In this document: in pieces, positions 3,438 to 58,023 of the stretch
Position numbering within the stretch: the stretch's first letter is position 1
How the letters are laid out: the number at the start of each line of letters is the position of its first letter
Notes under the pieces: generated by a model
Databases searched by the model: none
Told to the model about the DNA's origin: nothing
Seen by the model: the letters and a program-made list of their open reading frames with translations, nothing else
Source of the DNA: Acidobacteriota bacterium
GTDB taxonomy: Bacteria; Acidobacteriota; Blastocatellia; RBC074
Assembly (NCBI GenBank): GCA_016789605.1
Contig: JAEUQO010000202.1
Coordinates: forward strand, 421-64,420
Length of the DNA stretch: 64,000 bases
Direction of reading: 5' to 3'
Position numbers and translations under genes: made by a program

Positions 3438-3482
3438 AACGTAAGTCCTTTCTGTGAAGCGAAATAATGCGTGGCCGCGAGG

Positions 3483-4367: not shown

Positions 4368-4716
4368 GGTGCAGTCCTCCTCGGTTCGATTTCAGTGTGG
4401 TTTGGGATGCGATCGAGCGCCAGCATAGGCGCGAAGTCGTGAACTGTCAAGAATAGATTTCGCATTTGCGAGATAGAGTGGATAAGTGTTGCAAATTAAA
4501 GAGTTAAATTTTGATATTGCTCTATGGTAATGGCTGTGTGAAAAGCGAGGGCGGCTAATAGTTTGAGATTATCGCTGAAATGGGCAGGTTTTGCCGTGGC
4601 GGCAGGTGGTTTGGGTTTACTTCGCGCCTGCGAAGTTTGATTAGTTCAGTCTTTTCAATAGAATAGCAGGATTTGATGGACACCTATGCTGCGCTCGTGC
4701 TAAGTTGCGCGGCGTT

Positions 4717-5196
4717 ATGGCAAAGAATTCATCCGAGAGCGAAGACCGCGTCATCATCAAGCGGTACGGCAACCGCCGGTTGTACAACACCGAAACCAAA
4801 AGCTACGTCACCTATCAGGATTTGCTGCAAATCATACGCAAAGGCGTAGACATTCAGGTCGTGGATTCGGCGACCAAAGCCGACGTCACCAAAGCCGTGT
4901 TGATCCAGGCGATTTTGGAAGAAGAGAAGAACGACAAGAATCTGTTGCCGCTGCCGTTTCTCTTTCAGCTCATTCGTTCGCAGGAAGGCGCAGCCCAGGA
5001 TTTCTTTCGCAACTATCTGTCGAGCAGTTTTGAAGCGTATTTGAAGACGAAGGAAGAATTCGACAAACGCTTCCGTGGCTTGCTGGAAATGACCGCCAAT
5101 GCGCCGCAGATGTGGGAAAAGTTCATTCCGGGCGCGGACGCAATGAAAGAGTTTTGGGGATTGAACAAGAAACCGGACGAAGACAAAAACAAGTAA
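4717..5196 (+). CDS. phaR: Polyhydroxyalkanoate synthesis repressor PhaR-like regulator
   Basis: N-terminal [20 protein letters not shown]...[15 protein letters not shown] matches the PHB-accumulation DNA-binding domain; also [11 protein letters not shown]. Confidence 0.88.
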
Positions 5197-5202
5197 CGCC
5201 GA

Positions 5203-25676: not shown

Positions 25677-25977
25677 CAATTCCTTTCACGGGGGGGGGCC
25701 GGGAAATGCCCGGCGCCTCGCTCTCATCACGAGCGCAGCGACAGACGAACACGCTGCGCGCATTACACACATCTTTTTAGTTCTTTCTCGTTTCCCCCGA
25801 AATCATTGCACTCTTCTGCAAATGTAATTGACAACCATTGCCTGTGCTGAGCCGTTCAAGGTTCTGGCAGGCAGCGCGTGTTTGTCACGATGGCTTAAGA
25901 GCTTCTGCCACGGTCTTGCTGCTGCTGCGTGCGCAAGAAGCTCAAGGTTTGCGATTGTGACAACGAGAAGGAGAACC

Positions 25978-27947: not shown

Positions 27948-30900
27948 TTGGCGCAACTGGCCGCACAGCTTTTTTCTCATTTGACGGATGAACGCCGCCC
28001 GGTCGCCGCCGCGCCGAAAACGGCATCGGGCGAAAAACTACCTCTCTCTCAAGGCCAGCGTGCGCTCTATTATTTGCATCAGGTTTCCCCGGAAAGCTCG
28101 GCTTACAACATTGCCAATGCGGTGCGAATTCGTTCTGGTGTGAATGTCGCCGCTTTGCGGCGCGCCTTGCAATCGCTTGTTGAACGGCACTCCATCTTGC
28201 GTGCGACTTTTGGTGAAAACAGCGGCGAGCCGTGGCAACAAATCGCCGAAAGCACGGAAATTCAATTTACAAACGTTGCCATTGGCAATTGGGCGGAAGA
28301 GCAATTGACGGCTGCGATGGACGCCGAAGCCAACCGCCCGATTGATTTGAGCTGCGGGCCGCTGTTGCGCGTGACTTTGTTTACGCGTGAGACAGAAGAC
28401 CACGTGTTATTGCTTGTGGTGCATCACATCGCTGCCGATCTTTGGTCGCTGGGGTTGTGGTTGCGCGAAATGGGGTTGCTCTATGCCGCTGAAAACGCCG
28501 GGCAAGCAGCCGATTTGCCGTCCGTCACGTTGGCGTATCAGGGCTTTGTTTCGTGGCAGCAGCAAATGTTGGCCGGGCCTGAAGGCGCACGCCTGGAACA
28601 CTACTGGGCAGCGCAATTGCGCGATGGAACGCCGCCGCTGGAATTGTGGGCCAGTCGCGCGCAGGTTGACGAGGCAGCGGCAAGGGCCGGTACGCAGGCG
28701 TTTACGCTTTCGGCGGAACTGACCCAAAGGCTGAAAGCGCTTGGTCAGCAGCAAAACGCCACGTTGTTTGTGACGTTGCTGGCCGCGTTTCAAACTTTGT
28801 TGCATCGGTTTACCGGCCAGGAAGAGTTTTTGTTGGGCGCGCCGGTGATGGGGCGTCGCCGCGTCGAATGGGCGGGCATGCTGGGGTATCTGGTCAACCC
28901 GGTCGTCTTGCGCGCTGACCTGACAGGCAATCCGCGTTTTGTTGACCTGTTGGCGCGCGCCGAGAAAACCGCGCGCGAAGCTTTTGCGCATCAGGATTAT
29001 CCTTTTGCCCTGCTGGCAGAGCGCATGAAATTGCGCGGCGAATCTGCCAGCGCGTCCTTGCTGCAAGTGATGTTTGTTATGCAGCAAGCTGCCGCAGAAG
29101 GCGACGCCACCCTGGCCGCGTTTGCTTTGGGCGCAGCCGGGGCAGAAATGGAGTTGGGCGGATTGCGGCTGGAAGCGATGGCGACACCCGCAACCGCCGC
29201 GCAATTTCCGCTGACGCTGGCCGTGGCAGAACATCAGCGCGGGATTGTCGCGCGTTGGAGTTATGACAGGTCGCTGCTTGACGCGGAAATGGTCGAAGCG
29301 TTGGCGGCGGGGTTTGAAGTGTTGCTGGCCGCCATCGCCCGCGAGCCGCAGACGAGAATTTCGGAATTTCCGTTGTTGAGCGCCCAGGCGCAAAAGCGTT
29401 TGTTGGCGGAATGGTGCGGGCCGGGCGTGACGTTGCCCGGCGAATGTTTGCACGATCGGTTTGTCGCACAGGCAGAACGCGCACCCGACGCCATCGCGGT
29501 CGTCAGCCAGGAAAACGGCGTACGCGCGGAAATCAGTTACGGCGAGTTAAACCGGCGCGCCAATCAGCTTGCGCATCATTTGCGCGGGATGGGCGTCGGG
29601 CCGGAAACACGCGTCGGCGTATTGTTGGAGCGTTCGGCGGATTTGCCGATGGCCTTGCTCGCCGTGCTGAAAGCCGGTGCGGCGTATGTGCCGCTTGATC
29701 CTGCATACCCGACAGAGCGGCTGGCTTTCATGCTTTCCGATGCGGCAGTCGCCGCGCTGGTGACCACACAATCCTTGCTCGGTCAAACCGGCGCAACTGC
29801 GCCAGCCATCATCTGCCTTGATGCCGCGCAGGCTGTGATTGCGCGCGAACCGGATTGCAATCCGCCCTCGGCAACCACGCCGGAAAATCTCGCCTATGTG
29901 ATTTACACCTCTGGTTCGACCGGCCAACCCAAAGGCGCGCTGATCACGCATGCCAACGTGGCCCGTTTGCTGAGCGCCGCGCAACCACACTTTCAGTTTC
30001 AGGCCGATGATGTCTGGACGCTGTTTCATTCCGCCGCGTTTGATTTTTCAGTGTGGGAAATGTGGGGGGCGCTGTTGTATGGGGGCCGTTTGGTGATTGT
30101 GCCTTATCTGGTTAGCCGTACGCCCGAAGCGTTTTGGGCTCTGTTACAACGCGAAGGCGTCACCGTGCTCAATCAAACGCCGTCGGCGTTTCGACAACTG
30201 ATCAGCGCCGAAGCGGCCAGCGGCGATGTCGCGCCATTGTCGTTGCGCTGGGTCATTTTTGGCGGCGAAGCGCTCAGCTTCAGCGACCTGCAACCGTGGT
30301 TCAGGCGACGCGGAGATCAGCGCCCGCAACTGGTTAATATGTATGGCATCACCGAAACCACCGTGCATGTGACGCATCGTCCGCTGACAGAATCAGACTT
30401 CAGGCTGGGGGGCAGTTTGATCGGGCGTCCGCTATCGGCCTGGCAACTTTATGTGCTGGACGAGCAGTTGCGCCCTGTGCCGCAAGGGGTGGCGGGAGAA
30501 TTGTATGTCGGCGGCGCGGGCGTGGCGCGCGGATATTGGGCGCGTCCGGAGCTGACCGCGGAGCGATTTTTACCCGATCCATTTAGCGGCCAGCCGGGCG
30601 CGCGACTGTATCGCACCGGCGACCGTGCCAGGTATTTATCGCGCGGCGAGTTTGAATATCTGGGGCGCACCGATCAGCAACTGAAAATTCGCGGGTTCCG
30701 CATCGAACCGGGGGAAATCGAAGCGGCGCTGCAAGAGCACCCGGCGATTCGCGAAGCCGTTGTGCGGCTCAAGCACGATCTGCGCACGGAAGCCAGGTTG
30801 ATCGCTTACGTTGTGCGCCACCCCGGAGCAGCAATGGTTCCGGGCGAATTGCGCGCTCATTTGCGCGCCAAATTGCCAGTGCACATGGTTCCGGCGGCTT

Positions 30901-39130: not shown

Positions 39131-42100
39131 ATGACCGCAATTACCAACGCTGCCGCCGAAACCGCTGTGCCCGCCGTGCTGCCCGCTACGTTGCAAGGCT
39201 ATCGGCTGTCGCCGCAACAGCGCCGCGTCTGGCAGCAACAGGAAACAGGGTTCAGCGGATTCGCACAGGTTGTCTGGCGCATCACCGGCGCTTTGCGGCC
39301 AGACCTGTTGTCACGGGCTTTGCGGCAAGCAATGACCAGGCAGCAAATTTTGCGCACGACCTTTCACCGATTGCCGGGCATGACGTTGCCGGTGCAGGTC
39401 ATCAATGAACGAATGCCGCTGCCCTGGGAAGTGCGCGAATTGGCGGCACGACAGGATGAGCGCGAGTCTTTGGTGACAGAGGCGCAGGCAAACGAACAAC
39501 AACGATTGTATGACGCTGACCGTGGGCCGTTGTGGCGGGCGTTGTTATTGTCGTTTTCCGGTCAGGAAAATTTTCTGTTGTTGACGTCTTCCTTGTTGGT
39601 GGCTGATCAACGAACGCTGAACCTGTTGGCGGGTGAATTGGCGCAAGATTGCGCGGCGGCTGCCTGGGACGGGCAAGCAGAAGAGGAAGAGCTCACGCAG
39701 TATGTGCAATTTGCGGAATGGCAAAACGATTTGCTGGAAACGCTGGCTGAAAGCGGCGAAAGCGAGGCGCGCTGGCCGTGGCAACGGGAAAACCCGTCCG
39801 AAGAGTCATGGCTGAAATTGCCCGGTGAATCTTTCTCGCCGATTTCCGCCGCGCCGTTGTTCGCATCATTTTTCAGGGATGTGCCGCCCGCAACGGCGGC
39901 AACGATTGACGCGTTTTGTCGGCGTCAAAACGTGGCGCGCGAAAGCTGTCTGCTTGCTTGTCTGGCGACGCTGGTTTCGCGTTATGGCGCGAGCACCGAA
40001 GTTTTTCTTGGCTGGCAGGCAGATGGGCGAAGCGTTGATGAGTTACAGTCGGCTTGTGGACCTTACGCCAAAATCCTGCCGCTGTTTTTTCAGCTTGATG
40101 CGGCAAGGAGCTTCGCTGACTTCTTATGTGAAGTCGAGGCGCAGCGCCAGGCGACGCGTGCGCGGCAAGATGAATTTTTCTGGGAGCAGTTGCCGTCGGC
40201 TGTCGCCACTGCCTGGCCATTCTGGTTCGCTTTCCACCGCGCAGGTGAACCGCCTTTGCCAATCGCTGGCGAACCGCGCTTTTCCGTGTGGCGACAAGCG
40301 GGACAGCCAGAGCCGGGAAAGCTGGGGCTGGCGATTGACGCCAGCATGGAATCCTGGCGGTTGTGCTGGCATTACGACACGCGCTTTCTGCCTGCCGCCG
40401 TCGTGGAACGAATCGCGGAAGGCTTTGAGGCGCTGCTCAATGATGCGTTGCAACGTCCTGCCGCCGCAATCGGCGCATTGTCCGTTATCGGCGCACAACA
40501 GCGGCAACAATTGCTCACGAGCTTCAACCAAACTGCCGCCGATTACCCGCGCGAACAGTGCATTCATCACCTGATCGAGGCGCAGGCCAGAGAACATCCA
40601 CAACGCATCGCCGTACAGTCAGCAGCCAGCGGCGATACGGCTGCAAGCAGCCTGAGTTACGCCGAACTGAATGCGCGCGCCAATCAGTTGGCCAGACGAT
40701 TGCAAGCGCTGGGCGTTGGCCCGGAAACCATCGTCGGCGTGTGTGTGGAACGCGCACCAGAAATGCTGGTCGGCATTTTGGCCATTCTCAAAGCAGGCGG
40801 CGCATATCTGCCTCTCAATCCCGACCTGCCGCCGGAGCGTCTGGCGTTCATCGTGAATGATGCCGGGGCGAACATTCTTCTGACCAAAGAGCATTTACGC
40901 GCCCGCCTGCCGCAAGCGCCACGGGTGCTTTGCCTGGAGCGCATCAAATATGCCGACGCGGAAGCCGCCCCCCTGCCGAGCGAAGTGAATGCCTCACATC
41001 TTGCTTATGTCATTTACACCTCGGGTTCGACAGGACAGCCCAAAGGCGTGCTCGTCACACATCGCAATCTGGTGCATTCGACGACGGCGCGTTTGCGTTA
41101 TTACCGCGCGCCAATCACCAACTTCATGCTGGTTTCTCCGTTTGCTTTTGACAGTTCGATTGCCGGCATTTTCGGCACGCTATGTCAGGGCGGAACGCTG
41201 ACGCTGGCGCCGGAAAACTTTCAGCAGGATGTGAATCAGTTCGCGGCATTGCTCGACGCGCTTCAGGTTTCGCATTTGCTTTGTATTCCGTCGCTTTATC
41301 AGGCGCTGCTTGATCCGTTGCGCCGTCATGCTCTCTCGGCGTTGCGCACGGTGATTGTGGCCGGCGAATCCTGTGCGCGCCGGTTGGTTAACCGGCACCA
41401 CGAATTGTTTCCCCAGGTCACGCTATGCAACGAATACGGCCCGACGGAAGTCAGTGTCTGGAGCACCGTCGAAGAGTGTTTGCCCGCGGCGGCGGAAGCG
41501 CCCGTGCTTATTGGGCGGCCAATCACCAATACGCAGGCGTATTTGTTGGATGAGCGCGGCCAATTGTCGCCGCTCGGCGCGCTGGGCGAGTTGTATTTGG
41601 GCGGAGAAGGCGTTGCGCGCGGATATTTGCGCCGCCCGGAATTAACGGCGGAAAAATTTGTGCCTCATCCATTCAGCACCCAACCGGGCGCGCGTCTTTA
41701 TCGCACGGGCGATCTGGCGCGGTTTACTGCCGATGGCAAGCTGGAGTTTTTAGGCCGCCGCGATGGTCAGATCAAGCTGCGCGGATTTCGCATCGAACTG
41801 GAAGAGATTGAAAACACATTACGCCAGCATCCGGCCTTACAAGACGCCGTCGTGGCGGTTAAACCGCTGGCCGTGTCTTCAGCCGTTGAGCCTGATGGAT
41901 TGGCAGATGCAAAGGCCGAAATTGACTTGGCGCGTTTGGTGGCGGAGCTGGAAGCTTTGTCAGAAAACGAAGCGGAGCTTGCCTTGCAGGCTGGGCCTCG
42001 CGCCGAGAACAACAACGCCGCTTCCGTTAATCGGCGCGTACGCCGTGCGTCGCGGTTTGAACTTTCGTTGGAGCTGAAAGACGACGCTTTCATCCGCCCG

Positions 42101-42826
42101 CCGCGCGACACGCAACGCGAATGGTTACTGAATCAGGCCCTCAGCGAATTTGCCGAAGACTTGTCACAACTCGACCGGCTGGCGGCGCGTTTTGTGCCTG
42201 GCGCGGCAACCGATTGGCAAACGCTTGCCCGGGATCGTTCACAGGTGGCGCTCAGCGCACAGGAAATCATGGAAGATTGGCAAATTCCTGTGTTGCGTGT
42301 GATGGCGGAAACGGTCGGCGCGCAGGCCGGTCACATTCTCGAAATCGGATTTGGGCGCGGCATCTCGGCCTCGCTGATTCAGCAATACGATGTCGCGTCG
42401 CACACGATCATCGAATGTAACGAACACGTGGTCGAACACTATTTCCGCCCCTGGCAGCAACGTTACCCGGGGCGCGACATTCGCCTGTGCCAGGCCAAAT
42501 GGCAGGATGTGACGGCGCAACTGGGCATATACGACGCCATTCTTTTTCACGCCTATCCGCTTACTCCTCACGAAGTGCAGCAGAACGCCGCGGGCGTTGC
42601 GACATTCGCGGGCGATTTTTTCGCCGTCGCCGCCGCGCATTTACAACCCAACGGTGTGTTCACGTATTTGTCGCACGAGATGGATTCGCTCAGCCGCCGC
42701 CACCAGCGCTTGCTGTTGACGCATTTCCGCTCGTTCAGCGTCAGTGTGATGCCGCTGGAACTGCCCGCCGATTGTCGCGACTGGTGGTGGGCGGACGTGA
42801 TGGCGATTGTCACCGCACGGAAATAG
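39131..42826 (+). CDS. NRPS: interface-type C, A-core (His-like code), docking helix, GAMT-like methyltransferase
   Basis: GYRLSPQQRRVW and degenerate SSLLVADQR; A code DSALIAEVW; A stops after the A8 region; MT motifs IMEDWQIP, ILEIGFGRG and HTIIECN. Confidence 0.88.
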   Translation: MTAITNAAAETAVPAVLPATLQGYRLSPQQRRVWQQQETGFSGFAQVVWRITGALRPDLLSRALRQAMTRQQILRTTFHRLPGMTLPVQVINERMPLPWEVRELAARQDERESLVTEAQANEQQRLYDADRGPLWRALLLSFSGQENFLLLTSSLLVADQRTLNLLAGELAQDCAAAAWDGQAEEEELTQYVQFAEWQNDLLETLAESGESEARWPWQRENPSEESWLKLPGESFSPISAAPLFASFFRDVPPATAATIDAFCRRQNVARESCLLACLATLVSRYGASTEVFLGWQADGRSVDELQSACGPYAKILPLFFQLDAARSFADFLCEVEAQRQATRARQDEFFWEQLPSAVATAWPFWFAFHRAGEPPLPIAGEPRFSVWRQAGQPEPGKLGLAIDASMESWRLCWHYDTRFLPAAVVERIAEGFEALLNDALQRPAAAIGALSVIGAQQRQQLLTSFNQTAADYPREQCIHHLIEAQAREHPQRIAVQSAASGDTAASSLSYAELNARANQLARRLQALGVGPETIVGVCVERAPEMLVGILAILKAGGAYLPLNPDLPPERLAFIVNDAGANILLTKEHLRARLPQAPRVLCLERIKYADAEAAPLPSEVNASHLAYVIYTSGSTGQPKGVLVTHRNLVHSTTARLRYYRAPITNFMLVSPFAFDSSIAGIFGTLCQGGTLTLAPENFQQDVNQFAALLDALQVSHLLCIPSLYQALLDPLRRHALSALRTVIVAGESCARRLVNRHHELFPQVTLCNEYGPTEVSVWSTVEECLPAAAEAPVLIGRPITNTQAYLLDERGQLSPLGALGELYLGGEGVARGYLRRPELTAEKFVPHPFSTQPGARLYRTGDLARFTADGKLEFLGRRDGQIKLRGFRIELEEIENTLRQHPALQDAVVAVKPLAVSSAVEPDGLADAKAEIDLARLVAELEALSENEAELALQAGPRAENNNAASVNRRVRRASRFELSLELKDDAFIRPPRDTQREWLLNQALSEFAEDLSQLDRLAARFVPGAATDWQTLARDRSQVALSAQEIMEDWQIPVLRVMAETVGAQAGHILEIGFGRGISASLIQQYDVASHTIIECNEHVVEHYFRPWQQRYPGRDIRLCQAKWQDVTAQLGIYDAILFHAYPLTPHEVQQNAAGVATFAGDFFAVAAAHLQPNGVFTYLSHEMDSLSRRHQRLLLTHFRSFSVSVMPLELPADCRDWWWADVMAIVTARK

Positions 42827-42846
42827 GAGCCGCAAGAGATTGCTTT

Positions 42847-45800
42847 ATGGAACTTCATCAACGGATTGCCGCGCTTTCGCCGATCAAAAAAAGATTGTTT
42901 GAGTTTCGCTTGCAGCAGGAGCGTGACGCGAGCTCGCCTTTGCCCGTTGGCGCACGCACGCCGAAATCCAGAAACGATGGCAGCGATGAAAATGGCCAGC
43001 TTGTGGCGTATTTGGCGCCGCGTGCCGATTACGCCGCCGACCCGGAACGATTGATTGCAGATGTGCGGCGTTCGCTGCAAGACAAGCTGCCCGCGCCGAT
43101 GCAGCCAGCCGTTTATCTGGTGCTGGAGCGTTTGCCGCTGACACCAAACGGCAAGGTGGATCGTCGTGCGCTGCCCGCGCCGCGCGCCGCAGGTTCTGCC
43201 GCGCCTATGCCTGAGACCGACGCGAAAGCGCCGCGCACTGAGCTGGAACGCGTATTGGCCGAAGTCTGGCGCGAAACGCTGGGCGTGGCTGAACTCGGTA
43301 TTCACGATAATTTCTTTGCGCTCGGCGGAGATTCGATCAAAGGCATTGTGCTCATCAATCGCATTCAAGAGCGGCTGGGGAAACAGGTTCAGGTTGTCGC
43401 TTTGTTGCAATCGCCAACGATTGCGGCGCTCGCGGCTTCCTTGAGCCAGCAGTATCAGGATTTGCTGAACGCGCCCTCACTTCTCCCTACCGCTGCGCCG
43501 GTTGCTGCGCGAGTTGGCGAGCTGCGCCAGATTCAGGCTGTGAGGCGTCACCCGGAAATGGCTTTTCCGCTGTCATCGGCACAGCGGCGCTTGTGGTTTT
43601 TGAATCAACTGGAACCTGACAGTTCGGTTTACAACGTGAGCGCGGCGTTTCGGCTGCGCGGGCAATTCGATCCGCAGGCATTGCGGCTGAGTCTGCAAGC
43701 GCTGGCGCGGCGACATGAAATTCTGCGCACGGTGTTTGTGGAAGTTGACGGTTTGCCGTTGCAGCGCGTGTTGCCAGAACTCGAATTGGATGTGCAAACG
43801 CTTGATTTGCGAGCTCTGCCCGAAGCCGAACGCGAACAGCTCGCTCGACAGGAAGCCACCCGTGAAATCGCCAGGCCCTTTGATCTGGCGCGGGGGCCGT
43901 TGTTGCGATTACGCATATGGCAGCTTGATGAGGAAGAGCGTATCGCGCTTCTGTGCCTGCATCACATCATTTCTGACGGTTGGTCGGTCGAAGTGTTGAT
44001 GCGCGAACTCAGCGCGCTTTACGAAGCCGAAGTGACCGGGCGCAGCGCCGCACTACCCGAACTGACAATTCAATACGCCGATTATGCGTTGTGGCAGCGG
44101 CAACGACTGGCGTCAGGTGAACTAGCAGAGCAGCTTGCTTACTGGCAAAAGCAACTCGGCGGCGAGTTGCCTGATTTGGACTTGCCGCCGGATCGGCCTC
44201 GCCCATCGCAACCGACGTATAACGGCGCGCAATGCAAACACACGCTCGATGCGCAGTTGGCAAAGAAACTCAGCGACGTTGCCCGGCAGGCGCAGACGAC
44301 GAACTTCACGGTCTACCTTACCGCCTTTGGTTGTTTGTTACAGCGCTATTCCGGGCAGGAACAGATCGTGCTTGGCTGCCCGCTGGCTGATCGCCAAACA
44401 CCGCAAACCGAACCGCTGATCGGCCTTTTCGTCAACCCGCTGGCGCTGCGGATTGATCTGCGCGGTGCGTGCACGTTTGCCGAAGCATTGTCGCGAGTTC
44501 GTCAGGTCGTGCAGGAAGCGCGCGCGCATCAGGATGTTCCTTTTGAAAAACTGGTTGAGGAATTCCAGGTCGCGCGCCGCACGGATCGTCAGCCGATTTT
44601 TCAAGCCATGTTTGTTTTGCACGCCGACCCCGCGCCCGGATTTCAGCTTGCCGGAGTGCGCGTGACGCCGCTGGAAACGCTGCAGCACACCGCAAAATTC
44701 GAGTTGACCTTGTCCGTGCTCGAAGCCGAAAGCGGAACGACGGCGGTGTTGGAATACAACACGGATTTGTTTGAAGCCGCGACCGCAGAGCGAATGTTGG
44801 CGCATTACCGCAATTTGTTGCTGGCTGTGGCGGCTGACCCGCAGACAGAGCTGGCTGCCTTGCCGCTGCTTTCGGCGGAGGAGCAGCAACAACTTTTGCG
44901 CGACTGGAATGCGACTGAAACAGGCTTTGCCAGGGCGGGGTACGTTCCCGATCTGATTGCACAAATAGCGGCGCAAACGCCGCAACAACTCGCGGTGGCT
45001 GATGGAAGTGCGCAACTGAGTTATGCCGAGCTCAATACGCGCGCCAATCAGTTGGCGCACCTGTTGCAGGGGCTGGGCGTCGGCCCCGAAATTTGCGTGG
45101 GCGTTTGCCTGGAACGTTCAGCCGACTGGATTGTCAGTCTGTTGGCCGTGTTGAAAGCAGGAGGCGCCTATTTGCCGCTTGACCCTGCTTACCCGGCGGA
45201 GCGAATTCAATTTCTGGCGGCTGATGCCAATGCCGCAGTGGTCATCACGCACAGCACATTGGCGCACTGGTTCACCGGAGCTGATGCAAAGCTGGTTCAG
45301 CTAGATGCTGATTGCGCGAAGATTGCGCAACAGTCCATAGAGAATCCGCCGCATCGGTTGGCAGCAGAGAATCTGGCCTATGTGATTTACACCTCTGGTT
45401 CGACGGGGCAACCCAAAGGCGTCGAAATCAGCCAGAGCGCGTTGCGCAATCTGCTTGGCTGGCATCAACAAACGTATGGCATCAGCGCGACAGATCGTGC
45501 CAGCCAACTGGCAGGCATCGGGTTTGATGCCGCCGTCTGGGAAATCTGGCCGTATCTGACGGTCGGCGCGAGCATTCATTTGCCCGCGGAAGACGTCCGT
45601 CTTGACCCGGTGAGATTACGCGACTGGATCGTGACACAGGCGATTACCAGCTGTTTTGCGCCCACGCCACTGGCGGAAAGTTTGTTGGCGTTGCCCTGGC
45701 CAGACAATACGCTGCGCCGCTTACTGACGGGCGGAGATCGTCTGCGAAGCTATGCGCCGTCCGGCGTCACGTTTCAACTCGTTAATCATTATGGCCCGAC

Positions 45801-48204
45801 CGAAAATGCGGTTGTTGCGACTGCGGGGATCATCGGGCAGCAACCGGATGATGTTATCCGCCCGCCCGCGCTCGGCAAGCCGATCGCCAACAATCAGATT
45901 TATGTGCTGGATCGGCAGTTGCGCCCGGTTCCGCAAGGAGTCATTGGCGAATTGTATATCGGCGGTCGCAGCCTGGCGCGCGGTTATCGTGGCCGGGCAG
46001 ACAGCACGGCAGAGCGTTTTTCGCCCAATCCTTTTGGCGAATCGTCAACCGTTTCTGCCGGAACGCGGCTTTATCGCACCGGAGACCTGGTTCGGTATCG
46101 CGCTGACGGCGCGCTGGAATTTGTCGGGCGTGCTGACCAGCAAGTAAAAATTCGCGGGCATCGCATTGAACTGGCAGAGATCGAACAGGCTTTGCTGGCA
46201 CATCCGGCGGTGCGTGAATGCGCCGTTGTCTTGCCGCACACGACCGCTGGCGAGGCGCGCCTCAACGCGTTTTGGGTTGCGCAAATACCTGCCAACGCGT
46301 CTTTGGACGCCCTGACTCTGCGCCGGTTTTTGCGCGACAAACTGCCTGATTTCATGTTGCCGGCAGACTTCATGCGGTTGGATGCGCTCCCGTTGACGTC
46401 GCACGGCAAACTGGACCGGCGCGCACTATCAGCCATCATTTCGACGTCAGGTCACCACGCCGGGCAAAGCGGGCCGCCGCGCAATCCCGTCGAAGCCATC
46501 ATTGCGCATATCTGGGAAGAAGTTTTGCGGGTCGAATCAGTCGGTGCGGGTGACGATTTTTTTGCCTTGGGCGGGCATTCATTGTTGGCGACCCAAATTG
46601 TCTCGCGGTTGCGCGACGCGTTTGGCGTGGAATTGCCGTTGCGCGAGCTGTTCCTTTCGCCAACGGTGGCTGGCGTTGCTGAGAAAGTCGCCGCATTGCG
46701 CCGGGGCGAATTGTCCGCGCCGCCGCTGTCAGCCCAACCGCGTCCGGGTGAATTTCCGCTTTCATTTGCGCAACAGCGCTTGTGGTTTGTTCAGCGCCTG
46801 GCTCCCAATTCGAGCAGCAACAATATTGCGACAGCCGTGCGCATCAAAGGCGCGTTGGATACGGCGGCGATGGAACAAAGTCTGAGAGAAATCATCCGCC
46901 GACATGAAGTTCTGCGCACGGTTTTCCCTGAACGCGAGGGCCAGCCTCAGCAACTGATTCTGCCGATTTCATCGGTAACCTGCCGCCTGCCGGTGGTAGA
47001 CCTGCAAGAGCTGGCAGAGACGCAACGCGAAGCGGAAGCGCGTCGCCGCGCCGTGCAAGAAGCGCAACAGCCGTTTGATCTGGCTGTCGGACCACTGCTC
47101 CGCGCGACGTTGTTGCGACTGGACGAGCGAGAGCACGTTCTGCTGTTGAGCATGCATCACATCATTTCTGACGGCTGGTCGTTCGGCATCTTGATTCGCG
47201 AATTGACCGCGCTTTACCGCGCTTACACAAAACAATTGCCTTCGCCGTTGCCAGAGCTTCCGCTTCAATATGCCGATTTCGCCGCCTGGCAACGGCGCTG
47301 GCTGCAAGCAGAAGCGCTGGAACGACAGTTGGCGTACTGGCGCAAACAGCTTCAAGGGGTGCCTGTGTTGGAACTGCCGACCGACCGGCCTCGTCCCCCG
47401 ATACAACGTTTCAACGGCGCTACGTATTCCTTCCTGGTTGAGCCTGAAACCCTGACCGCATTGCAGTCTTTGAGCCGTCGCGAAAGCGTCACGCTATTCA
47501 TCGTGTTGCTGGCGGCATTCAAAACGCTGCTTCACCAGAAAACACAACAGGACGACATCGTGCTTGGCGCGGACATCGCCAACCGCAACCGCACCGAGAC
47601 GGAAGGGCTGATCGGGTTTTTCGTCAATATGCTTGTGTTGCGCACAAACCTGGCCGGTGATCCTGATTTTGGCACGCTGCTGCGGCGCGTGCGCGAGGTT
47701 GCGCTCGACGCGTACGCTCATCAGGACGCGCCGTTTGAAAAACTGGTCGAAGCATTGCACGCGCCGCGCGATTTAAGCCGCAACCCGCTTTTTCAGATTG
47801 CTTTTGTCTTGCAGAACACGCCGACGGCGGAAGCCGCTATCCCCGAACTCGAATTGATTCCGCTCGAAGTGGACAGCGGAACCGTGCCGTTTGATCTGGT
47901 GTTGTCCTTGCGCGAGGAACCGGCGGGGTTGTGCGGGATGCTTTCTTACAGCACGGACCTGTTTGACTCGGCCACCATCGCGCAGATGGCGCAGCAATTT
48001 CAGACCTTGTTGCGGCGCATCGCTGCCAACCCCGAAGAACGCCTTTCGCAGTTGTTGCGCGACACATCCGCCGCTGCAACGGAAAACCGTGGTCGCGCGC
48101 CAGAACGCTTTGCCAGAGTAAGGCTGGATGCGCAAACGCTGGCGCAGGTCGCCGCAGAGATAAACGAGCGGGCGGTGAACGCTCCGCAAGGAGCAGGGGA
48201 CTGA
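42847..48204 (+). CDS. NRPS: A-subdomain (A9-A10)-T-C-A(Leu-like)-T-C
   Basis: ATG 42847; LSPIKKRLFE docking helix, QLVAY..LPLTPNGKVDRRALP, T GGDSIKG, C HHIISDGWS, A code DAWFLGHVVK, T GGHSLLA, terminal C HHIISDGWS. Confidence 0.92.
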   Translation: MELHQRIAALSPIKKRLFEFRLQQERDASSPLPVGARTPKSRNDGSDENGQLVAYLAPRADYAADPERLIADVRRSLQDKLPAPMQPAVYLVLERLPLTPNGKVDRRALPAPRAAGSAAPMPETDAKAPRTELERVLAEVWRETLGVAELGIHDNFFALGGDSIKGIVLINRIQERLGKQVQVVALLQSPTIAALAASLSQQYQDLLNAPSLLPTAAPVAARVGELRQIQAVRRHPEMAFPLSSAQRRLWFLNQLEPDSSVYNVSAAFRLRGQFDPQALRLSLQALARRHEILRTVFVEVDGLPLQRVLPELELDVQTLDLRALPEAEREQLARQEATREIARPFDLARGPLLRLRIWQLDEEERIALLCLHHIISDGWSVEVLMRELSALYEAEVTGRSAALPELTIQYADYALWQRQRLASGELAEQLAYWQKQLGGELPDLDLPPDRPRPSQPTYNGAQCKHTLDAQLAKKLSDVARQAQTTNFTVYLTAFGCLLQRYSGQEQIVLGCPLADRQTPQTEPLIGLFVNPLALRIDLRGACTFAEALSRVRQVVQEARAHQDVPFEKLVEEFQVARRTDRQPIFQAMFVLHADPAPGFQLAGVRVTPLETLQHTAKFELTLSVLEAESGTTAVLEYNTDLFEAATAERMLAHYRNLLLAVAADPQTELAALPLLSAEEQQQLLRDWNATETGFARAGYVPDLIAQIAAQTPQQLAVADGSAQLSYAELNTRANQLAHLLQGLGVGPEICVGVCLERSADWIVSLLAVLKAGGAYLPLDPAYPAERIQFLAADANAAVVITHSTLAHWFTGADAKLVQLDADCAKIAQQSIENPPHRLAAENLAYVIYTSGSTGQPKGVEISQSALRNLLGWHQQTYGISATDRASQLAGIGFDAAVWEIWPYLTVGASIHLPAEDVRLDPVRLRDWIVTQAITSCFAPTPLAESLLALPWPDNTLRRLLTGGDRLRSYAPSGVTFQLVNHYGPTENAVVATAGIIGQQPDDVIRPPALGKPIANNQIYVLDRQLRPVPQGVIGELYIGGRSLARGYRGRADSTAERFSPNPFGESSTVSAGTRLYRTGDLVRYRADGALEFVGRADQQVKIRGHRIELAEIEQALLAHPAVRECAVVLPHTTAGEARLNAFWVAQIPANASLDALTLRRFLRDKLPDFMLPADFMRLDALPLTSHGKLDRRALSAIISTSGHHAGQSGPPRNPVEAIIAHIWEEVLRVESVGAGDDFFALGGHSLLATQIVSRLRDAFGVELPLRELFLSPTVAGVAEKVAALRRGELSAPPLSAQPRPGEFPLSFAQQRLWFVQRLAPNSSSNNIATAVRIKGALDTAAMEQSLREIIRRHEVLRTVFPEREGQPQQLILPISSVTCRLPVVDLQELAETQREAEARRRAVQEAQQPFDLAVGPLLRATLLRLDEREHVLLLSMHHIISDGWSFGILIRELTALYRAYTKQLPSPLPELPLQYADFAAWQRRWLQAEALERQLAYWRKQLQGVPVLELPTDRPRPPIQRFNGATYSFLVEPETLTALQSLSRRESVTLFIVLLAAFKTLLHQKTQQDDIVLGADIANRNRTETEGLIGFFVNMLVLRTNLAGDPDFGTLLRRVREVALDAYAHQDAPFEKLVEALHAPRDLSRNPLFQIAFVLQNTPTAEAAIPELELIPLEVDSGTVPFDLVLSLREEPAGLCGMLSYSTDLFDSATIAQMAQQFQTLLRRIAANPEERLSQLLRDTSAAATENRGRAPERFARVRLDAQTLAQVAAEINERAVNAPQGAGD

Positions 48205-48213
48205 GAAGTCACT

Positions 48214-49836
48214 ATGTGGCGCAACGAATCACTTTATCTGAAACCGGATGTCTTGCTGGAACCGCTGTTCAACCAATGGTATGCCTGGCCGTATTTGATC
48301 GCTCCTGCGTCAGCGGCGATGTATGTCGCCAATCAACATCTCAAGCTGATGCAATCGTTCGTGGCTGCACCGCAAACGCATCAAGCGGCATTACGCAACC
48401 CGGCGTTGCTGGGCGGCCCGTTTCTGAATTGCGACCCCAGGCACGCGCCCGAAGTGAAGTCGTTGTGGGAACGTACCATCAAAGAGCAGCAGCCGTTGCT
48501 GGCGTTGGCCGAATCCATACGGGCGCTGGATCAGTTGCTTGACGAAGAGGCGCTGGGGCTGTCGCTGTCGCCATTGTATGCGCGCGTGCCTGAGCCGCTG
48601 CGCGGTTGCGTCGAACTGGTGTATGACGCCAATCACCGCCCGTCGGCGCGGCTTATCGAAGGCTTGCTTTACCAAAGCCAGTATTACAACCCGGCGGCGC
48701 AAAGTTTACTGCTGTGGCGCGCGGCGCAGGATGCGCGCTCGTTCGTTTTTAGCACGCCGCGTTTGCCAGAAACGCGTCAGCTTCAGCTTTCATTGCCGTT
48801 TGCCCATGCCGGTCTGGACGAACTTTTCAAGATGAGGCGCACGCCTCAACGCCATGGTTTCATCAAAGAGCAGTTGGCCATTCCAGACACAGACGATGAA
48901 TTGTTTGCCGATCTGTTTACTGACGCGCCGCCGCCGGCGCCCGCCAGCTATCAAGGCGCGGGCGTCCGCATTCGCTATTTCGGCCACGCGTGTTTGCTGA
49001 TCGAAACCGCTGAAGTCTCGCTTCTATGCGATCCGGCAATTAGTTATGGCGGCGCGCCGGACATTGAGCGCTTTACCTTTGCCGATCTGCCGGCACGCCT
49101 GGATTACGTGCTGATCACGCACAACCACCAGGATCATTGTTTGCTGGAAACGTTGCTGCAATTGCGCCCGCAGATCGGCACTTTGGTTGTGCCTAAAAAC
49201 AACGGCGGCAGTTTGGTTGACCCTTCGTTGAAACTGGCCCTGCGGCAAATCGGTTTTCGCAACGTGATCGAACTCGACGAAATGGAGTCGTTGGAAATGT
49301 CCGGCGGGCAAATCATCGGCGTGCCATTTTTGGGCGAACACGCTGATCTGGGGATTCGCTCCAAACTGGCTTACTGGATTGCCGTGAAAGGCCAGCGCCT
49401 GCTCTGTGTCGCCGATTCAGAGAATCTCGAGCCAAAATTATATGAACGCATTGCAAACGTTTTGGGCCCGGCTGATGTGCTGTTTGTCGGAATGGAATGT
49501 GACGGCGCGCCGCTCAGCTGGCTTTACGGCGCACTGTTGACCAAACCGCTCTCGCGCAAAATGGATCAGACGCGTCGCTCAAACGGCTCGGATTTTTTGC
49601 AAGCGCAGGCGCTGGTCGAGCAATTGTCGCCCACTCAGGTTTATGTGTATGCGATGGGGCAGGAACCCTGGCTTACCTATCTGACTTCGTTGCGTTACAC
49701 CCCCACGTCGCGCCCGATCGTCGAATCCAACCAACTCATTGATGCTTGCCGTCAGCGCGGTGTAACGGCAGAGCGGCTTTACGGACAGAAAGAAATTCAT
49801 TTGCCGCCGCGCACGTCAAGGAAAGAGGACAAATGA
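48214..49836 (+). CDS. Metallo-beta-lactamase-fold diiron amino-acid beta-hydroxylase (CmlA-like)
   Basis: 540 aa; N-terminal EPLFNQWYAW and LLGGPF, YFGHAC, THNHQDH, PFLGEHADL, GMECDGAPLSW and YAMGQEPWL, all recalled as CmlA-family motifs. Confidence 0.82.
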   Translation: MWRNESLYLKPDVLLEPLFNQWYAWPYLIAPASAAMYVANQHLKLMQSFVAAPQTHQAALRNPALLGGPFLNCDPRHAPEVKSLWERTIKEQQPLLALAESIRALDQLLDEEALGLSLSPLYARVPEPLRGCVELVYDANHRPSARLIEGLLYQSQYYNPAAQSLLLWRAAQDARSFVFSTPRLPETRQLQLSLPFAHAGLDELFKMRRTPQRHGFIKEQLAIPDTDDELFADLFTDAPPPAPASYQGAGVRIRYFGHACLLIETAEVSLLCDPAISYGGAPDIERFTFADLPARLDYVLITHNHQDHCLLETLLQLRPQIGTLVVPKNNGGSLVDPSLKLALRQIGFRNVIELDEMESLEMSGGQIIGVPFLGEHADLGIRSKLAYWIAVKGQRLLCVADSENLEPKLYERIANVLGPADVLFVGMECDGAPLSWLYGALLTKPLSRKMDQTRRSNGSDFLQAQALVEQLSPTQVYVYAMGQEPWLTYLTSLRYTPTSRPIVESNQLIDACRQRGVTAERLYGQKEIHLPPRTSRKEDK

Positions 49837-52800: not shown

Positions 52801-55478
52801 GGGAAACACTGCACGACGCGCCTCTGACAACGCTGCCCCACATTGCGCGGATAACGCCGCAACAGGGAAGCGAGCGGCGCGGGCGATTACAGACAATCAG
52901 TTTGACGCCGGCGCTTGTGCGTGGGCTGAAAGCCTCGGCGGAGCAAATCGGCGTGCCGCTGAAAAGCGTTCTGCTGGCGGCGCATCTGAAAGTGCTTGGT
53001 TTGCTCGCAGGCCAAACCGAGGTCGTCACCGGGTTGGTCACCAACGGGCGACCGGAAACGGCAGATGGCGAACGATTGCTCGGTTTGTTTCTCAACACCG
53101 TGCCGTTGCGTGTTGCCTTGTCTCAGGGGGCGTGGGCGGAATTGGCGCGCGCCGCCGCCGCCGCCGAGCGAGAGCTGTTGCCGTATCGCCGCTTTCCGCT
53201 GGCTGAGATGCAACGTGTTACCGGCAGGCCGGTGCTTTACGAAACTGTTTTCAATTTCATCCACTTTCACGCTTTTGCGGGGGTGCTCGAAAGTCAGCAA
53301 GTCACCTTGCTCGATAGCCGCAGCTTTACCGAAACCAACTTTCCTTTCATCGCCAACTTCAACCTGGACCCCGCGACCGACGTGCTTCAGATTGTTTTGC
53401 ATTACGACGCGGCGCGTTTGCCAGACGAACAGGCAGAGGCGCTGGCCGGTTATTACTTGCGCGCATTGACCGCGCTTGCCACGCATCCGGCAACGCCGCA
53501 TCACACGGCGGATTTGCTCTCTACCGCGGAACGCAACCGATTGTTGCGCGACGTCAGCGCCACAGCGCAACACTATCCGCAAGCTTGCCGCGTTCACGAA
53601 CTGTTTGAACAACAAGCCGCGCGCACGCCAACCGCCGTGGCCGTCGAAGCGGGCGAGGTGTGTCTGTCATATCAGGAACTGAACGCGCGTGCGAACCGAA
53701 TCGCGCAGGCTTTGCGCGCACGCGGAGTCGCCGCGGAAACCAGCGTAGGCATCTGTCTGCCGCGTTCGGCAGACGCGGTCGCGGCGGTGTTGGGCGTTTT
53801 CAAGGCCGGAGGCGCGTATGTGCCACTTGATGCCAACTGGCCGCCAGAGCGCCTGGCCTATGTTTTGCGCGATGCTGGCGTGGAATTGTTATTGACGCAT
53901 ACGCAATTCGCCGAACGGCTGAAGCCGCTTTCCGTGGCATGTTTGTTTCTTGACGACACGGAGGTTTTGGCGGCCTGTGAATCGCATCATCCCGGCACGA
54001 TCACGCAAAGCGCCAATCTGGCCTATGTCATTTATACCTCCGGCTCTACCGGACAGCCCAAAGGCGTCGCCGTTGAACACCGGCAATTGGTCAATTATTT
54101 GTGCTGGTTCAATCAGTTTCTATCGCCCGAACCGCCCTTGTTGCCGCTGACAACCAGCCTGAGCTTCGACGCTTCGCTCAAACAATTGCTGGCGCCGCTG
54201 TTGCGCGGCGCGCGGGTGTGGGTGTTACCAGACGACACCGTCACACAACCGGCGGCATTGGCGCGTGCGCTTTGCCAAAAAAACAACGTGGGGCTGAATT
54301 GCGTGCCTGCATTGTGGGATGCATTGCTCAGCAGCGCCGATGTGGGCGAATTGCGTGCCTTGCGGGCTTCGCTGACGCATCTTTTCATTGGCGGCGAACA
54401 ATTCAGCCGCGACCTGATCGCGCGAACGCAGCAGCATTTCCCCGCACTGACAATCATCAATCTTTACGGGCCGACCGAAACCACGGCCAATGCCAGTGCC
54501 GGGCACATTGCCAACGCCACGGATATTTCCCTAGGCCCGCCGCTGGCTAACACGCAACTTTACGTTTTGGATGAGGCGCTCAATCTCGTGCCAGAGGGCG
54601 TCGCGGGTGAACTGTATATCGGCGGCGACGGGGTGGCGCGGGGGTATCGCAATCGACCTGAATTGACGGCGGAACGTTTTTTGCCCGACCCCTATGGCGT
54701 GCGCGCTGGCGGGCGGCTGTACAAAACCGGCGATCTGGTGCGTCGGCTGGCTTCGGGGCGGCTCGAATTTCTGGGGCGCAACGACCATCAGGTCAAAGTG
54801 CGCGGATTTCGCATCGAGCTCGGTGAAATTGAAAGCGTGTTTCGTGAACATGCCGCCGTCGAACAGTGTGTTGTGTTGGCGCGCCAGGATGCCGCCAGTG
54901 GGCAGGCCGACGGGCAAACGCGGCTGGTGGCGTATGTCGTGACATCGCGCGCCGCAACCTGGAGGCCGGAAGAATTGCGGCAATACGCCGCTCAGCGTCT
55001 GCCCGATTACATGCTTCCCGCCGTTTTTGTGCGCTTGGAACAGTTGCCGCGCAACACACACGGCAAACTGGATCGCCGCGCATTGATGGCTCTCGGTGCG
55101 CCGACCGCTATGCCACAAGCTTTTGTTGCGCCGCGCACTGCGACCGAGACAAAACTGGCGGAAATTTGGGCTGCCGTGCTCGAGTGCGACCGGATCGGAG
55201 TGCACGACAACTTTTTCGCACTGGGCGGGCATTCGCTAAATGCGACGCAAGTCGTGGCGCGCATCCGCGCCGCTTTTGCCTGCGAATTGCCGTTGCGGCA
55301 ATTGTTCGAAGCTCCGACCATTGCCGCCTTGGCCACACAGATCGAACAACGGCTTGCCCGCGAAACCGCACCCGCAGACCTGGAACAAATGCTGGCCGAA
55401 ATCAGCCAGCTTTCCGAGCACGAAATCGAACGGTTGTTGAGTGCTGAACGCGCCGCCGGAAAAGGGGGTGCGGATTGA
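49833..55478 (+). CDS. NRPS: half-C-A(Ile/Val-like)-T-C(modAA-like)-A(unassigned)-T
   Basis: ATGA overlap with the upstream gene; ~165-aa C remnant (IEDIYP..YHRLLLDEAS); A code DAFFLGATFK; T GGDSIRSIQ; C DAYPLTRLQSGMLFH, HHSILDGWS, FNFIHFH; A code DAKNFGLANK; T GGHSLNA. Confidence 0.92.
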   Translation: MSKMNLHEIEDIYPVSERQATWLRAPQITGGNARCTAELGAGPDREILQQAWQRLVAGHPILRGSFVWRRVAEPLLVIRREVPTQIHVHDASQPDVIVTDFDLARAPLWRVEVRQQAAQGFRLDLSYHRLLLDEASAQLLLTELRRGYDALRQGREFTPAGELPCQWNDTATEYPRAQTISELFEAQAALTPDAVALRYPDAELSYAELNRRANRLAHYLRSVGVTAETCVGICLERSAELIVALLATLKAGGVYLPLDPEQPLERLAFMLDDAQAPVVITREAELERMPAHWGQVICLDSDAAAIAQESAVNPVSLVTAENLAYVNYTSGSTGQPKGIGIPHRAVVRLVRQTNYIQFASADVVAQVATPSFDAATFEIWGALLNGARLVGFPKDILLAPPVFAAQLREQGVSVLFLTTALFNQIAQVTPDAFASLRYLLFGGDAAAPRWVREVLLSNAPAHLLNAYGPTESTTFAAWHEVSSLAADAAVVPIGRPLSNTELYLLDENLRPVPAGVVGELHIGGDGLARAYLNRPTLTAEKFIPHPFSQTAGARLYKTGDWARYNDEGHFEFLGRRDQQVKLRGYRIELGEIETILRQHAAVRDAVVVVREEQPGEKQLVAYVVAAAPGEVAAATLRSHLQRHLPEYMVPALFVSLKQLPVTLNGKVDRRALPAPEIESGAAAPSQVVPETQLEQALAEIWAAVLGRSSVGVTENFFEAGGDSIRSIQVVARAQARGIALEIQDLFQHQTIRTLAVALADRRADEQPPSRVEPFSLLKEEDRLRLSVWAETTLADAYPLTRLQSGMLFHSEYQPGDALYLDVLSYHLRAPFDVAACRAALQALTDRHAVLRTAFDLTGFSEPMQLVRQQITPILQVEDLSALPDEEQERRLNDWVAQEKQNPFDWRQAPLIRFALHRRGADRIQFSFSFHHSILDGWSETQMLREFFGLYYAHLGVTQAYANEPLAVTYADFVALERAALIAEEPRAFWRETLHDAPLTTLPHIARITPQQGSERRGRLQTISLTPALVRGLKASAEQIGVPLKSVLLAAHLKVLGLLAGQTEVVTGLVTNGRPETADGERLLGLFLNTVPLRVALSQGAWAELARAAAAAERELLPYRRFPLAEMQRVTGRPVLYETVFNFIHFHAFAGVLESQQVTLLDSRSFTETNFPFIANFNLDPATDVLQIVLHYDAARLPDEQAEALAGYYLRALTALATHPATPHHTADLLSTAERNRLLRDVSATAQHYPQACRVHELFEQQAARTPTAVAVEAGEVCLSYQELNARANRIAQALRARGVAAETSVGICLPRSADAVAAVLGVFKAGGAYVPLDANWPPERLAYVLRDAGVELLLTHTQFAERLKPLSVACLFLDDTEVLAACESHHPGTITQSANLAYVIYTSGSTGQPKGVAVEHRQLVNYLCWFNQFLSPEPPLLPLTTSLSFDASLKQLLAPLLRGARVWVLPDDTVTQPAALARALCQKNNVGLNCVPALWDALLSSADVGELRALRASLTHLFIGGEQFSRDLIARTQQHFPALTIINLYGPTETTANASAGHIANATDISLGPPLANTQLYVLDEALNLVPEGVAGELYIGGDGVARGYRNRPELTAERFLPDPYGVRAGGRLYKTGDLVRRLASGRLEFLGRNDHQVKVRGFRIELGEIESVFREHAAVEQCVVLARQDAASGQADGQTRLVAYVVTSRAATWRPEELRQYAAQRLPDYMLPAVFVRLEQLPRNTHGKLDRRALMALGAPTAMPQAFVAPRTATETKLAEIWAAVLECDRIGVHDNFFALGGHSLNATQVVARIRAAFACELPLRQLFEAPTIAALATQIEQRLARETAPADLEQMLAEISQLSEHEIERLLSAERAAGKGGAD

Positions 55479-57994: not shown

Positions 57995-58023
57995 AACTTT
58001 GCGAGGCCGACGGAAGAAAACCT

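Follow-up and report, generated by a model that had tools for sequence, protein, structure and literature searches.

The stretch of DNA analysed here (the window) comprises 64,000 nucleotides (nt) from an Acidobacteriota bacterium (assembly GCA_016789605.1, contig JAEUQO010000202.1, positions 421 to 64,420 of the forward strand), and positions given below are those of the window. It carries a nonribosomal peptide synthetase (NRPS) cluster in which the motifs of one adenylation (A) domain are distributed over two neighbouring genes, termed gene A and gene B. Gene A encodes a condensation (C) domain, an A core with motifs A1 to A8 and a methyltransferase (MT), after which the protein ends, and gene B encodes, behind an N-terminal helix, motifs A9 and A10 and a carrier (T) domain. 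The features of the two genes, with protein positions in amino-acid residues (aa), are as follows.

39131-42826, + strand: gene A, encoding C, A core (A1-A8), a docking-type helix and an MT resembling guanidinoacetate N-methyltransferase (GAMT); 1231 aa
39200-40168, + strand: Condensation domain of gene A (Pfam PF00668, aa 24-346, E = 2.2e-38)
40577-41629, + strand: large subdomain of the adenylation core of gene A (PF00501, aa 483-833, E = 9.1e-87)
41753-41872, + strand: A8 segment, first part of the small subdomain (Asub), gene A aa 875-914, GRRDGQIKLRGFRIELEEIE...DAVVAVKPLA
41918-41998, + strand: internal docking-type helix of gene A, aa 930-956, EIDLARLVAELEALSENEAELALQAGP
42032-42823, + strand: MT unit of gene A, aa ~968-1231, consisting of a lead-in (RRVRRASRFELSLELKDDAFIRPPRD...) and a GAMT-like class I S-adenosylmethionine (SAM) methyltransferase
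42824-42846, + strand: TAG stop (42824-42826) and 20-nt spacer with GGAG at 42827-42830 and AAGAGA at 42835-42840; the frame changes here
42847-48204, + strand: gene B, encoding docking helix, A9-A10, T, C, A, T and C; 1785 aa
42853-42918, + strand: N-terminal docking-type helix of gene B, aa 3-24, LHQRIAALSPIKKRLFEFRLQQ
42994-43176, + strand: A9-A10 part of Asub, gene B aa 50-110, with the Lys103 codon at 43153-43155
43252-43437, + strand: T domain of the split module, gene B (PF00550, aa 136-197, GGDS, E = 2.7e-16)

Gene A occupies an open reading frame (ORF) at 39071/39131-42826 on the + strand, and translation from the ATG at 39131 yields a 1231-residue protein that is the same as a database entry of equal length (P0003). 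Its C domain probably extends to around aa 455, past the Pfam match. The A core matches the AMP-binding profile PF00501 in full (positions 2-384 of 384, aa 483-833), and motifs A1 to A7 are visible as LSYAEL, LKAGGAYLPL, YTSGSTGQPKG, FDSS, NEYGPTE, GELYLGGEGVARGY and YRTGDL. The A8 stretch, GRRDGQIKLRGFRIELEEIE...HPALQDAVVAV, extends from aa 875 to 910 (approximately nt 41753-41860) with the A8 motif itself at aa 875-894, and residues G875, R876, D878, Q880, K882, G885, R887 and E889 are invariant in 39 homologues. A Pfam scan of gene A returned no match to AMP-binding_C (PF13193) or PP-binding. The A8 stretch is followed by the docking-type helix, whose L..L..L....A..LL pattern is retained in the homologue consensus, and by the MT unit, which starts ~60 aa beyond the A8 strand as an auxiliary domain inserted after A8 and occupies the protein up to its final residue (...WWADVMAIVTARK). 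The start of this unit was set at ~968 because the stand-alone MT genes of the three-gene loci described below begin there.

The ATG of gene B lies 20 nt past the stop of gene A and in another frame (39131 mod 3 = 2; 42847 mod 3 = 1), and the frame of gene B is open upstream back to 42487. The first 24 residues of the protein are helix-like (MELHQRIAALSPIKKRLFEFRLQQ) and lead into a low-complexity spacer; the helix motif, R-[IV]-x-x-L-S-P-x-x-R-x-L-L, is present in 13 loci with L10 invariant. Residues 52-103 match positions 29-76 only of the 76-position PF13193 profile, which is the A9-A10 part, and the A10 lysine, Lys103, sits in NGKVDR, where G102, K103 and D105 are invariant in the 13 loci. 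The small subdomain is complete only as the sum of the two chains, with A8 in gene A and A9-A10 and Lys103 in gene B. This is the layout put forward in an earlier reading of the letters alone (the original prediction), which placed A1-A8 in the protein starting at 39131, with an end at ~41860, then a docking helix, an MT and the stop at 42826, and gave the next gene a docking helix, the rest of the A domain with the A10 lysine and the T domain; translation, the Pfam matches (aa 875-910 for A8; PF13193 positions 29-76 and PF00550 behind the ATG at 42847) and matches in the Protein Data Bank (PDB) agree with it throughout.

Conservation of the split among homologues and loci

The stop codon might stem from an error of assembly or sequencing, or from a recent mutation that pseudogenised a once-fused interrupted A domain. 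The genome is a draft of 491 contigs, and homologues P0186, P0220 and P0192, described below, show that frameshift errors happen in such data. However, the junction with its TAG at 42824-42826, which the original prediction had singled out for confirmation in reads, recurs without a substitution or indel in Logan contigs from three further studies, one of them possibly the source of the window, in which contigs of DNA runs X8, X9 and X13 cover 41700-43543 or more without mismatch or gap. A 2-kb stretch across the junction is represented by 0.98-1.00 of its sampled words in 14 DNA runs from six studies of sludge and wastewater metagenomes, one of which may be the source sample of the window. 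The separate frames of the two genes and the ATG of gene B likewise argue against an artefact, as do the homologues.

To survey these homologues, the linker and MT region was used as query against a collection of 5.8 billion proteins. In all of the best 120 matches listed, of 677-2155 aa, the MT alignment ends at most 14 aa from the C-terminus, and in all 34 matches of 2156-5000 aa it ends at most 9 aa from it. Precomputed Pfam columns assign the database twin of gene A and all 153 other matches to PF27704, which is used here as an accession only; a full-text literature search returned no paper holding this accession. When 1.84 billion representatives were searched exhaustively with a profile, 1970 matched at E ≤ 1e-3, 1125 at E ≤ 1e-10 and 187 at E ≤ 1e-30. 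Both length-range searches and the 150 best representatives were pooled into 253 distinct MT proteins, 45 of which are short stand-alone MTs. Every pooled protein that has A3 or A8 motifs (196/196) stops within 15 aa past the MT, and no genuine fused form, with the MT running on into A9-A10, was present among the 253, five exceptions having been inspected. P0186 and P0220 were dismissed as out-of-frame reads into the downstream gene with loss of the conserved ...WWADSM..VKAVK end, and P0192 likewise runs from the MT into the downstream frame and loses the conserved MT end; these run-on proteins are considered frameshift errors because the MT C-terminus is lost and an out-of-frame string (VGRFDG/VGRLDG) is read. 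P0207 carries an 18-aa tail after the MT, and the tandem GAMT-like proteins P0251 and P0254 have no NRPS motifs. A different arrangement is seen in P0157 (1262 aa), an A core with two tandem C-terminal MT units, each having its own lead-in. Homologues with the split that the original prediction envisaged were thus found, and none of the proteins examined is a genuine single fused ORF.

The gene downstream of the MT was inspected at 19 loci, 18 from a scan of one genome per species and one (L014) from the search of the phylum. At 14 of them (L014-L025, L028 and L032) it encodes a helix followed by LVAY...LPxYMxP...GKxDR and GG[DH]S, in taxa that include Verrucomicrobiales, Bryobacteraceae, Thermoanaerobaculaceae, Pyrinomonadaceae, Nitrospiraceae, Rhodocyclaceae, Longimicrobiales, Calditrichaceae, Fuerstiella and Bacteroidota. 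The remaining five are stand-alone MTs in other contexts (L026, L027), a contig end (L029) and distant stand-alone MTs of 29-30% identity (L030, L031). The helix-A9/A10-T gene lies in frame 0, +1 or +2 relative to the MT, the MT stop is TGA, TAA or TAG, and the two genes may overlap by 4 nt or lie as much as 779 nt apart. At 7 of the 14 loci the MT stop and the next ATG overlap as ATGA, which suggests translational coupling. At L024 and L028 the downstream gene consists of the A9-A10 stub and T alone (~190 aa). The longest spacing belongs to L019 (Calditrichaceae), where, unlike the tight junctions of the other loci, the helix-A9/A10-T gene starts 779 nt past the MT stop, with small ORFs in between (3768-4546). 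At L032 (Fuerstiella, 3436-6293) the MT open frame is partial, with 81 aa before a stop, and the helix-A9/A10-T gene is intact; this MT is possibly a broken or frameshifted copy.

The module is divided among three genes at six loci, namely those of Bacteroidota (L015-L018), Rhodocyclaceae (L021) and Longimicrobiales (L022). One gene encodes C and the A core with a helix tail, another a free MT of ~265 aa and the third helix, A9-A10 and T, and the MT gene abuts or overlaps both neighbours. The modules span the following positions of their loci.

L015: 2891-8591
L016: 2867-7973
L017: 1-3311
L018: 2897-7976
L021: 2957-11242
L022: 2894-8654

With 196 of 196 NRPS homologues ending at the MT, a separate downstream gene at 14 of 19 loci, frames and stop codons that vary among loci, seven ATGA overlaps and run-on proteins that are themselves errors, an artefact or recent mutation is extremely improbable, and the claim of the original prediction that the split is no assembly artefact holds on the identical contigs, the proteins and the loci alike. 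Genes A and B might instead be joined during translation, by read-through of the stop or a programmed frameshift, into a conventional interrupted A domain, and the short 20-nt spacing and the open frame ahead of gene B would accommodate this. Judged by gene layout, such recoding is contradicted by the variable relative frame and spacing, by the three separate genes at six loci and by the ATG or GTG and conserved N-terminal helix that every B-type gene has of its own, and it is given hardly any credence.

Docking-type helices and proposed completion of the A domain

Three other subunits in the window have C-terminal tails of the same type as the helix that follows A8 in gene A (LVAELEALSENEAELAL); these tails read LKRLEALSEAEAQALLEQKR at 34316, LAEISQLSEHEIERLL... 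at 55478 and LEQMTEEEAQALLHASR at 62980. Likewise, the genes that come after those tails encode N-termini (RMAELSPEKRALLELFL, KLAGLSPAQRELLELRL and ILNQLTPAKRALLAARN) that share their type with the first helix of gene B (RIAALSPIKKRLFEFRL). Tails of the pattern L..LSE.EA..LL and heads of the pattern L..LSP.KR.LL..RL meet at junctions 34316/34329, 55478/55475 and 62980/63009, where the helix pair serves ordinary A-T, T-C and T-C boundaries, respectively, and the A-core protein of the three-gene loci ends in the same tail type as the internal helix of gene A. From these sequences, the ordinary inter-subunit docking pair of the cluster would appear to bridge a break inside a domain. Short matching C- and N-terminal helices, known as COM domains or docking domains, pair the subunits of NRPSs, and the helices described here resemble them. 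They differ in that the C-terminal partner is internal in gene A, because the MT is fused behind it, and in that the pair spans a break within a domain fold.

A related division is observed upstream, where an NRPS (27948-34316; C-A-T-C-A) ends in a complete final A domain (AMP-binding_C at aa 1996-2071) and a docking-type tail. Its T domain is encoded by a separate gene for ~150 aa (34329-34790) that begins with an LSPEKRALL helix, so that 34316/34329 is an A/T split with the same helix pair as the A8/A9 split.

The complex was modelled from gene A aa 855-1231 (39-homologue alignment) and gene B aa 1-125 (13 homologues). The interface score (ipSAE) was 0.67 (runs 0.70, 0.65 and 0.67), compared with 0.00 for the best of three controls; 58 of 80 solved complexes attain the mark set for this score, as do 2 of 110 mismatched pairs, and these counts are a rough guide here, since our own alignments were supplied. 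Contact agreement between runs was at least 71% and the predicted local distance difference test (pLDDT) of the partner at least 67. Confident contacts join gene A 881-914 to gene B 46-114 and gene A 930-956 to gene B 3-24, with the lowest errors between gene A 903-911 and gene B 53-59, a strand-strand completion of the small subdomain. The model of the complex, which the original prediction had proposed as a check, thus pairs the helices and completes Asub across the chains. We know of no template for the helix-pair patch.

Embedded MTs are familiar from one-chain interrupted A domains such as TioS A4-M (PDB 5wmm), which is said to be covered in a 2015 review by Labby et al. and reportedly has its MT between A8 and A9 within one chain. 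Genes A and B share with these the insertion point, after the A8 strand of Asub, and the logic of an auxiliary domain acting on aminoacyl-S-T. In contrast, TioS-type chains return to A9-A10, where 196 of 196 proteins of the present family end at the MT, and the MT belongs to a different sequence family, the match to 5wmm (E = 0.051) being confined to the A8 stretch, at aa 1-37 of a query of 358 aa. The statement in the original prediction that MTs interrupt A domains between A8 and A9 but within one chain has been overtaken by the description of Crz1/Crz2 from corallorazine biosynthesis in Corallococcus coralloides B035 (Dreckmann et al. 2024, PMC11342130). There, Crz1 (C-A-T-C-A-nMT; 7131 bp, 2376 aa) stops after an nMT set right behind A8, and crz2 encodes A9-A10 and then T-TD; Crz1.2 (C-A-MT) alone gave no Gly turnover, and a 1:1 mixture with Crz2 gave almost quantitative exchange (PMC11342130). 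Its authors called the split 'unique' and possibly due to erroneous recombination (PMC11342130).

The two systems have in common the stop after an MT placed behind A8 and the A9-A10 part that opens the next ORF before T. In Crz1/Crz2 both proteins are needed for adenylation, and the same would apply to genes A and B. The two systems differ in that Crz activates Gly and makes N-Me-Gly, whereas the code here is His-like; and in that the Crz nMT is called conventionally embedded, whereas the GAMT-like MT is terminal in every member. Docking helices go unmentioned in the available text of PMC11342130, and here they are explicit, as are three-gene variants; the split is described there as a one-off and is here a feature of the whole family. 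The same text gives mainly actinomycetes, Serratia and Pseudomonas, in contrast to Verrucomicrobiota, Acidobacteriota, Planctomycetota, Cyanobacteria, Bacteroidota and others for the present family. The 34 long MT matches include no 2376-aa protein and no Corallococcus or Streptomyces (myxobacterial or actinomycete) name, a weak indication that the MT families differ. Full-text searches for a natural A8/A9 split found the corallorazine paper alone, and the word 'split' does not occur in a review of A domains (PMC11253843). The split A domain as a phenomenon is therefore already known from one case, and what appears to be new is a widespread family with an obligatory split, a different and always C-terminal MT, and docking helices.

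Genes A and B would together constitute one working NRPS elongation module whose A domain is obligatorily split between A8 and A9, a reading to which we give a probability of about 0.8; activity in trans at this locus is proposed by analogy with Crz1/Crz2. Assembly in trans with docking helices, as originally predicted, is supported by the conserved split, the helix types, the ipSAE of 0.67 and Crz1/Crz2, with the function inferred. The helices of the two proteins would pair first, and a strand of protein B (LVAYLAP) would then join the DAVVAV strand of protein A, so that the small subdomain is completed by fold complementation. Protein A would contribute the first third of Asub (A8 hairpin, helix and strand) and protein B the A9 and A10 motifs with catalytic Lys103, plus the carrier domain. 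The rebuilt A domain would adenylate its amino acid, most likely L-histidine, and load it onto the T domain of protein B, after which the tethered residue would be methylated by the MT of protein A and then condensed by the C domain of that protein.

Another possibility is that protein B does not complete the A core at all. Its T domain would then receive its amino acid from the downstream A domain of gene B, or from some other complete A domain acting in trans, and protein A would be a C and MT scaffold and the stub a relic. Inactive A domains and loading in trans are both known from NRPSs (albicidin and syringomycin; PMC8949500), and gene B has an atypical A9 motif, LPAPMQP in place of the LPxYMxP of homologues. 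This account conflicts with the strong conservation of A1-A8 and of the specificity code across the family, with the invariance of G102, K103 and D105 and the constant company of a T domain, and with the genes of L024 and L028, since a stub joined to T only would be pointless for a relic; moreover, the stub is required for adenylation in Crz1/Crz2 (PMC11342130). We regard it as improbable.

Several observations weigh against the split module as a working unit, beginning with that atypical A9 motif and including the points on substrate and methylation raised in the next section. The MT lies outside the confident interface of the complex model, and the pass of the model may reflect likeness to solved A domains rather than binding, because in these the Asub patch lies within one chain, so that this part of the model may stem from the likeness. 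A split-module orthologue was not found in 40 relatives, 21 of them of the same genus, with A8, linker and MT as query, the search returning just free GAMT-like ORFs (162-196 aa, 33% identity) and A8-only matches, and among 400 other genomes of the phylum the module is present in one (G157). The relatives thus offered no control from the same lineage, and the cluster was probably acquired. Contigs from an RNA library (metatranscriptome run X15) cover 41714-41892 and 42502-42757 only and may derive from DNA, so that they have no bearing either way on transcription across the junction.

Substrate code and methyltransferase

The specificity code of gene A is DSACIAEVW, to which Lys103 of gene B supplies the tenth position (DSACIAEVWK), the positions having been mapped by motif anchors with GrsA numbering and not by structure. 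A DS..[IVM]AEV[WF] code is present in 124 of 154 family members. The window code agrees with His codes. It matches at 9 of 10 positions DSALIAEVWK, which is given as a His-activating signature in a 2025 survey (PMC12283262). On the strength of the code, L-His is probably the substrate of the split module and, since the code resembles a published His code, His is probably what the MT methylates. The assignment draws on a single literature signature that differs at one position in ten, and on the likeness to His codes in general.

The closest match of the MT in the PDB is GAMT (3orh, E = 1e-17; also 1xcj, 1p1b and 1khh). Local Pfam gave a weak Methyltransf_25 match (E = 0.0034), and neither local Pfam nor NCBIfam returned a family name. 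As the best solved relative (3orh, 1xcj, 1khh), GAMT aligns over ~140 residues with shared SAM-binding motifs, and both proteins finish at their C-terminus; GAMT differs in being a free-standing metabolic enzyme, with ~30% identity over the aligned core. Invariant residues of the MT are E55, G57, F58, G59, G61, E79, W108 and Q109, motif I (EIGFGRG), IIE and WQD being invariant or nearly so, and judged by these residues the MT looks active. Free-standing GAMT-like ORFs of 162-196 aa, 33% identical to the MT, also occur in the genome of the window (G000:C144:1625-2095, - strand) and in two congeners (G015, L002; G012, L003), in positions unrelated to the cluster.

The residue aligned with the Asp of YDTYPL in GAMT, which we take to be the catalytic base of that enzyme, is His in the window (LFHAYPL). 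Because His replaces this Asp, the chemistry of the MT may differ from that of GAMT, or the MT may be impaired. The 124 members with His-type codes have H (101) or Q (18) at this position, five being unread, and 26 of 30 members with other codes keep D together with GFGMG (FDTYP), as in GAMT. Two sub-branches of the MT can be distinguished, one with H/Q, EIGFGRG and His-type codes and the other with D, GFGMG and other codes, the latter including DAELIGAIT, DVELIGVIT and DVWVIGIIG. This co-variation hints that MTs of the His branch act on the imidazole side chain and that those of the Asp branch are N-methylases of a more general kind, although shared descent could yield the same pattern.

The architecture may be as described and the MT nevertheless a generic backbone (alpha-N) methyltransferase like the Crz1 nMT, or the substrate an amino acid other than His. 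MTs embedded at A8/A9 are most often N-methylases, and the association of the Asp-keeping branch (FDTYP, GFGMG) with many codes (26 of the 30 non-His codes) is what a backbone methylase would give. On the other side, the almost exclusive pairing of 124 His-coded A domains with the H/Q variant suggests side-chain adaptation, which common descent could mimic, and the nearest solved relative, GAMT, methylates an amidine-type nitrogen. We consider this alternative a real but lesser possibility; methylation may fall on an imidazole N or on the alpha-N. In the literature on evybactin, 3-methyl-His is present in a nonribosomal peptide, and nothing was found there on its methyltransferase; it serves as a lead only.

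Cluster context and significance

The genes around the split module point to extensive tailoring. Two proteins combine a Condensation domain with a TauD/TfdA-type Fe/2-oxoglutarate dioxygenase (34798-37200 and 55475-57994, the second starting with a docking helix) and presumably hydroxylate a tethered residue. The gene immediately behind gene B (48214-49836) encodes a CmlA-type diiron beta-hydroxylase, and the cluster further encodes an asparagine-synthase-like enzyme at 37026-39107, a B12-binding radical SAM enzyme at 57991-59682 and a fatty-acyl-AMP-ligase-like starter at 25828-27945. This complement suggests a heavily tailored lipopeptide as the product. The His module is a possible target of the beta-hydroxylase, as acceptance of beta-OH is reported for the published His code (PMC12283262).

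The break probably exists because this MT family occurs solely in C-terminal or free-standing form and is never threaded into a chain, although this is speculation. On balance we lean, by a modest margin of belief, towards a large undescribed class of NRPS module (at least 187 clusters at E ≤ 1e-30, ~ten phyla) in which the A domain is never contiguous, a GAMT-derived terminal or free MT stands at A8/A9, Asub is rebuilt from two or three polypeptides through a docking pair, and the residue formed is mostly methyl-His.

For genome mining, domain callers would report such modules as 'A without T' and 'T without A', or miss the MT, for which the local Pfam-A scan gave no significant match in gene A. 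The split also bears on how auxiliary domains get grafted onto A domains and, for engineering, the A8/A9 boundary and its helix pair would offer a natural site, already tested in evolution, for cutting and recombining NRPS subunits. If the reading is true, A8/A9 has been used repeatedly as a bona fide subunit boundary, with a portable split site and docking pair, and not as the one-off recombination accident proposed for corallorazine. The locus suggests that the Crz-type solution is the rule for a whole widespread module family with a different MT and substrate, and it points to an uncharacterised route to methylated His residues in the nonribosomal peptides of poorly studied phyla.

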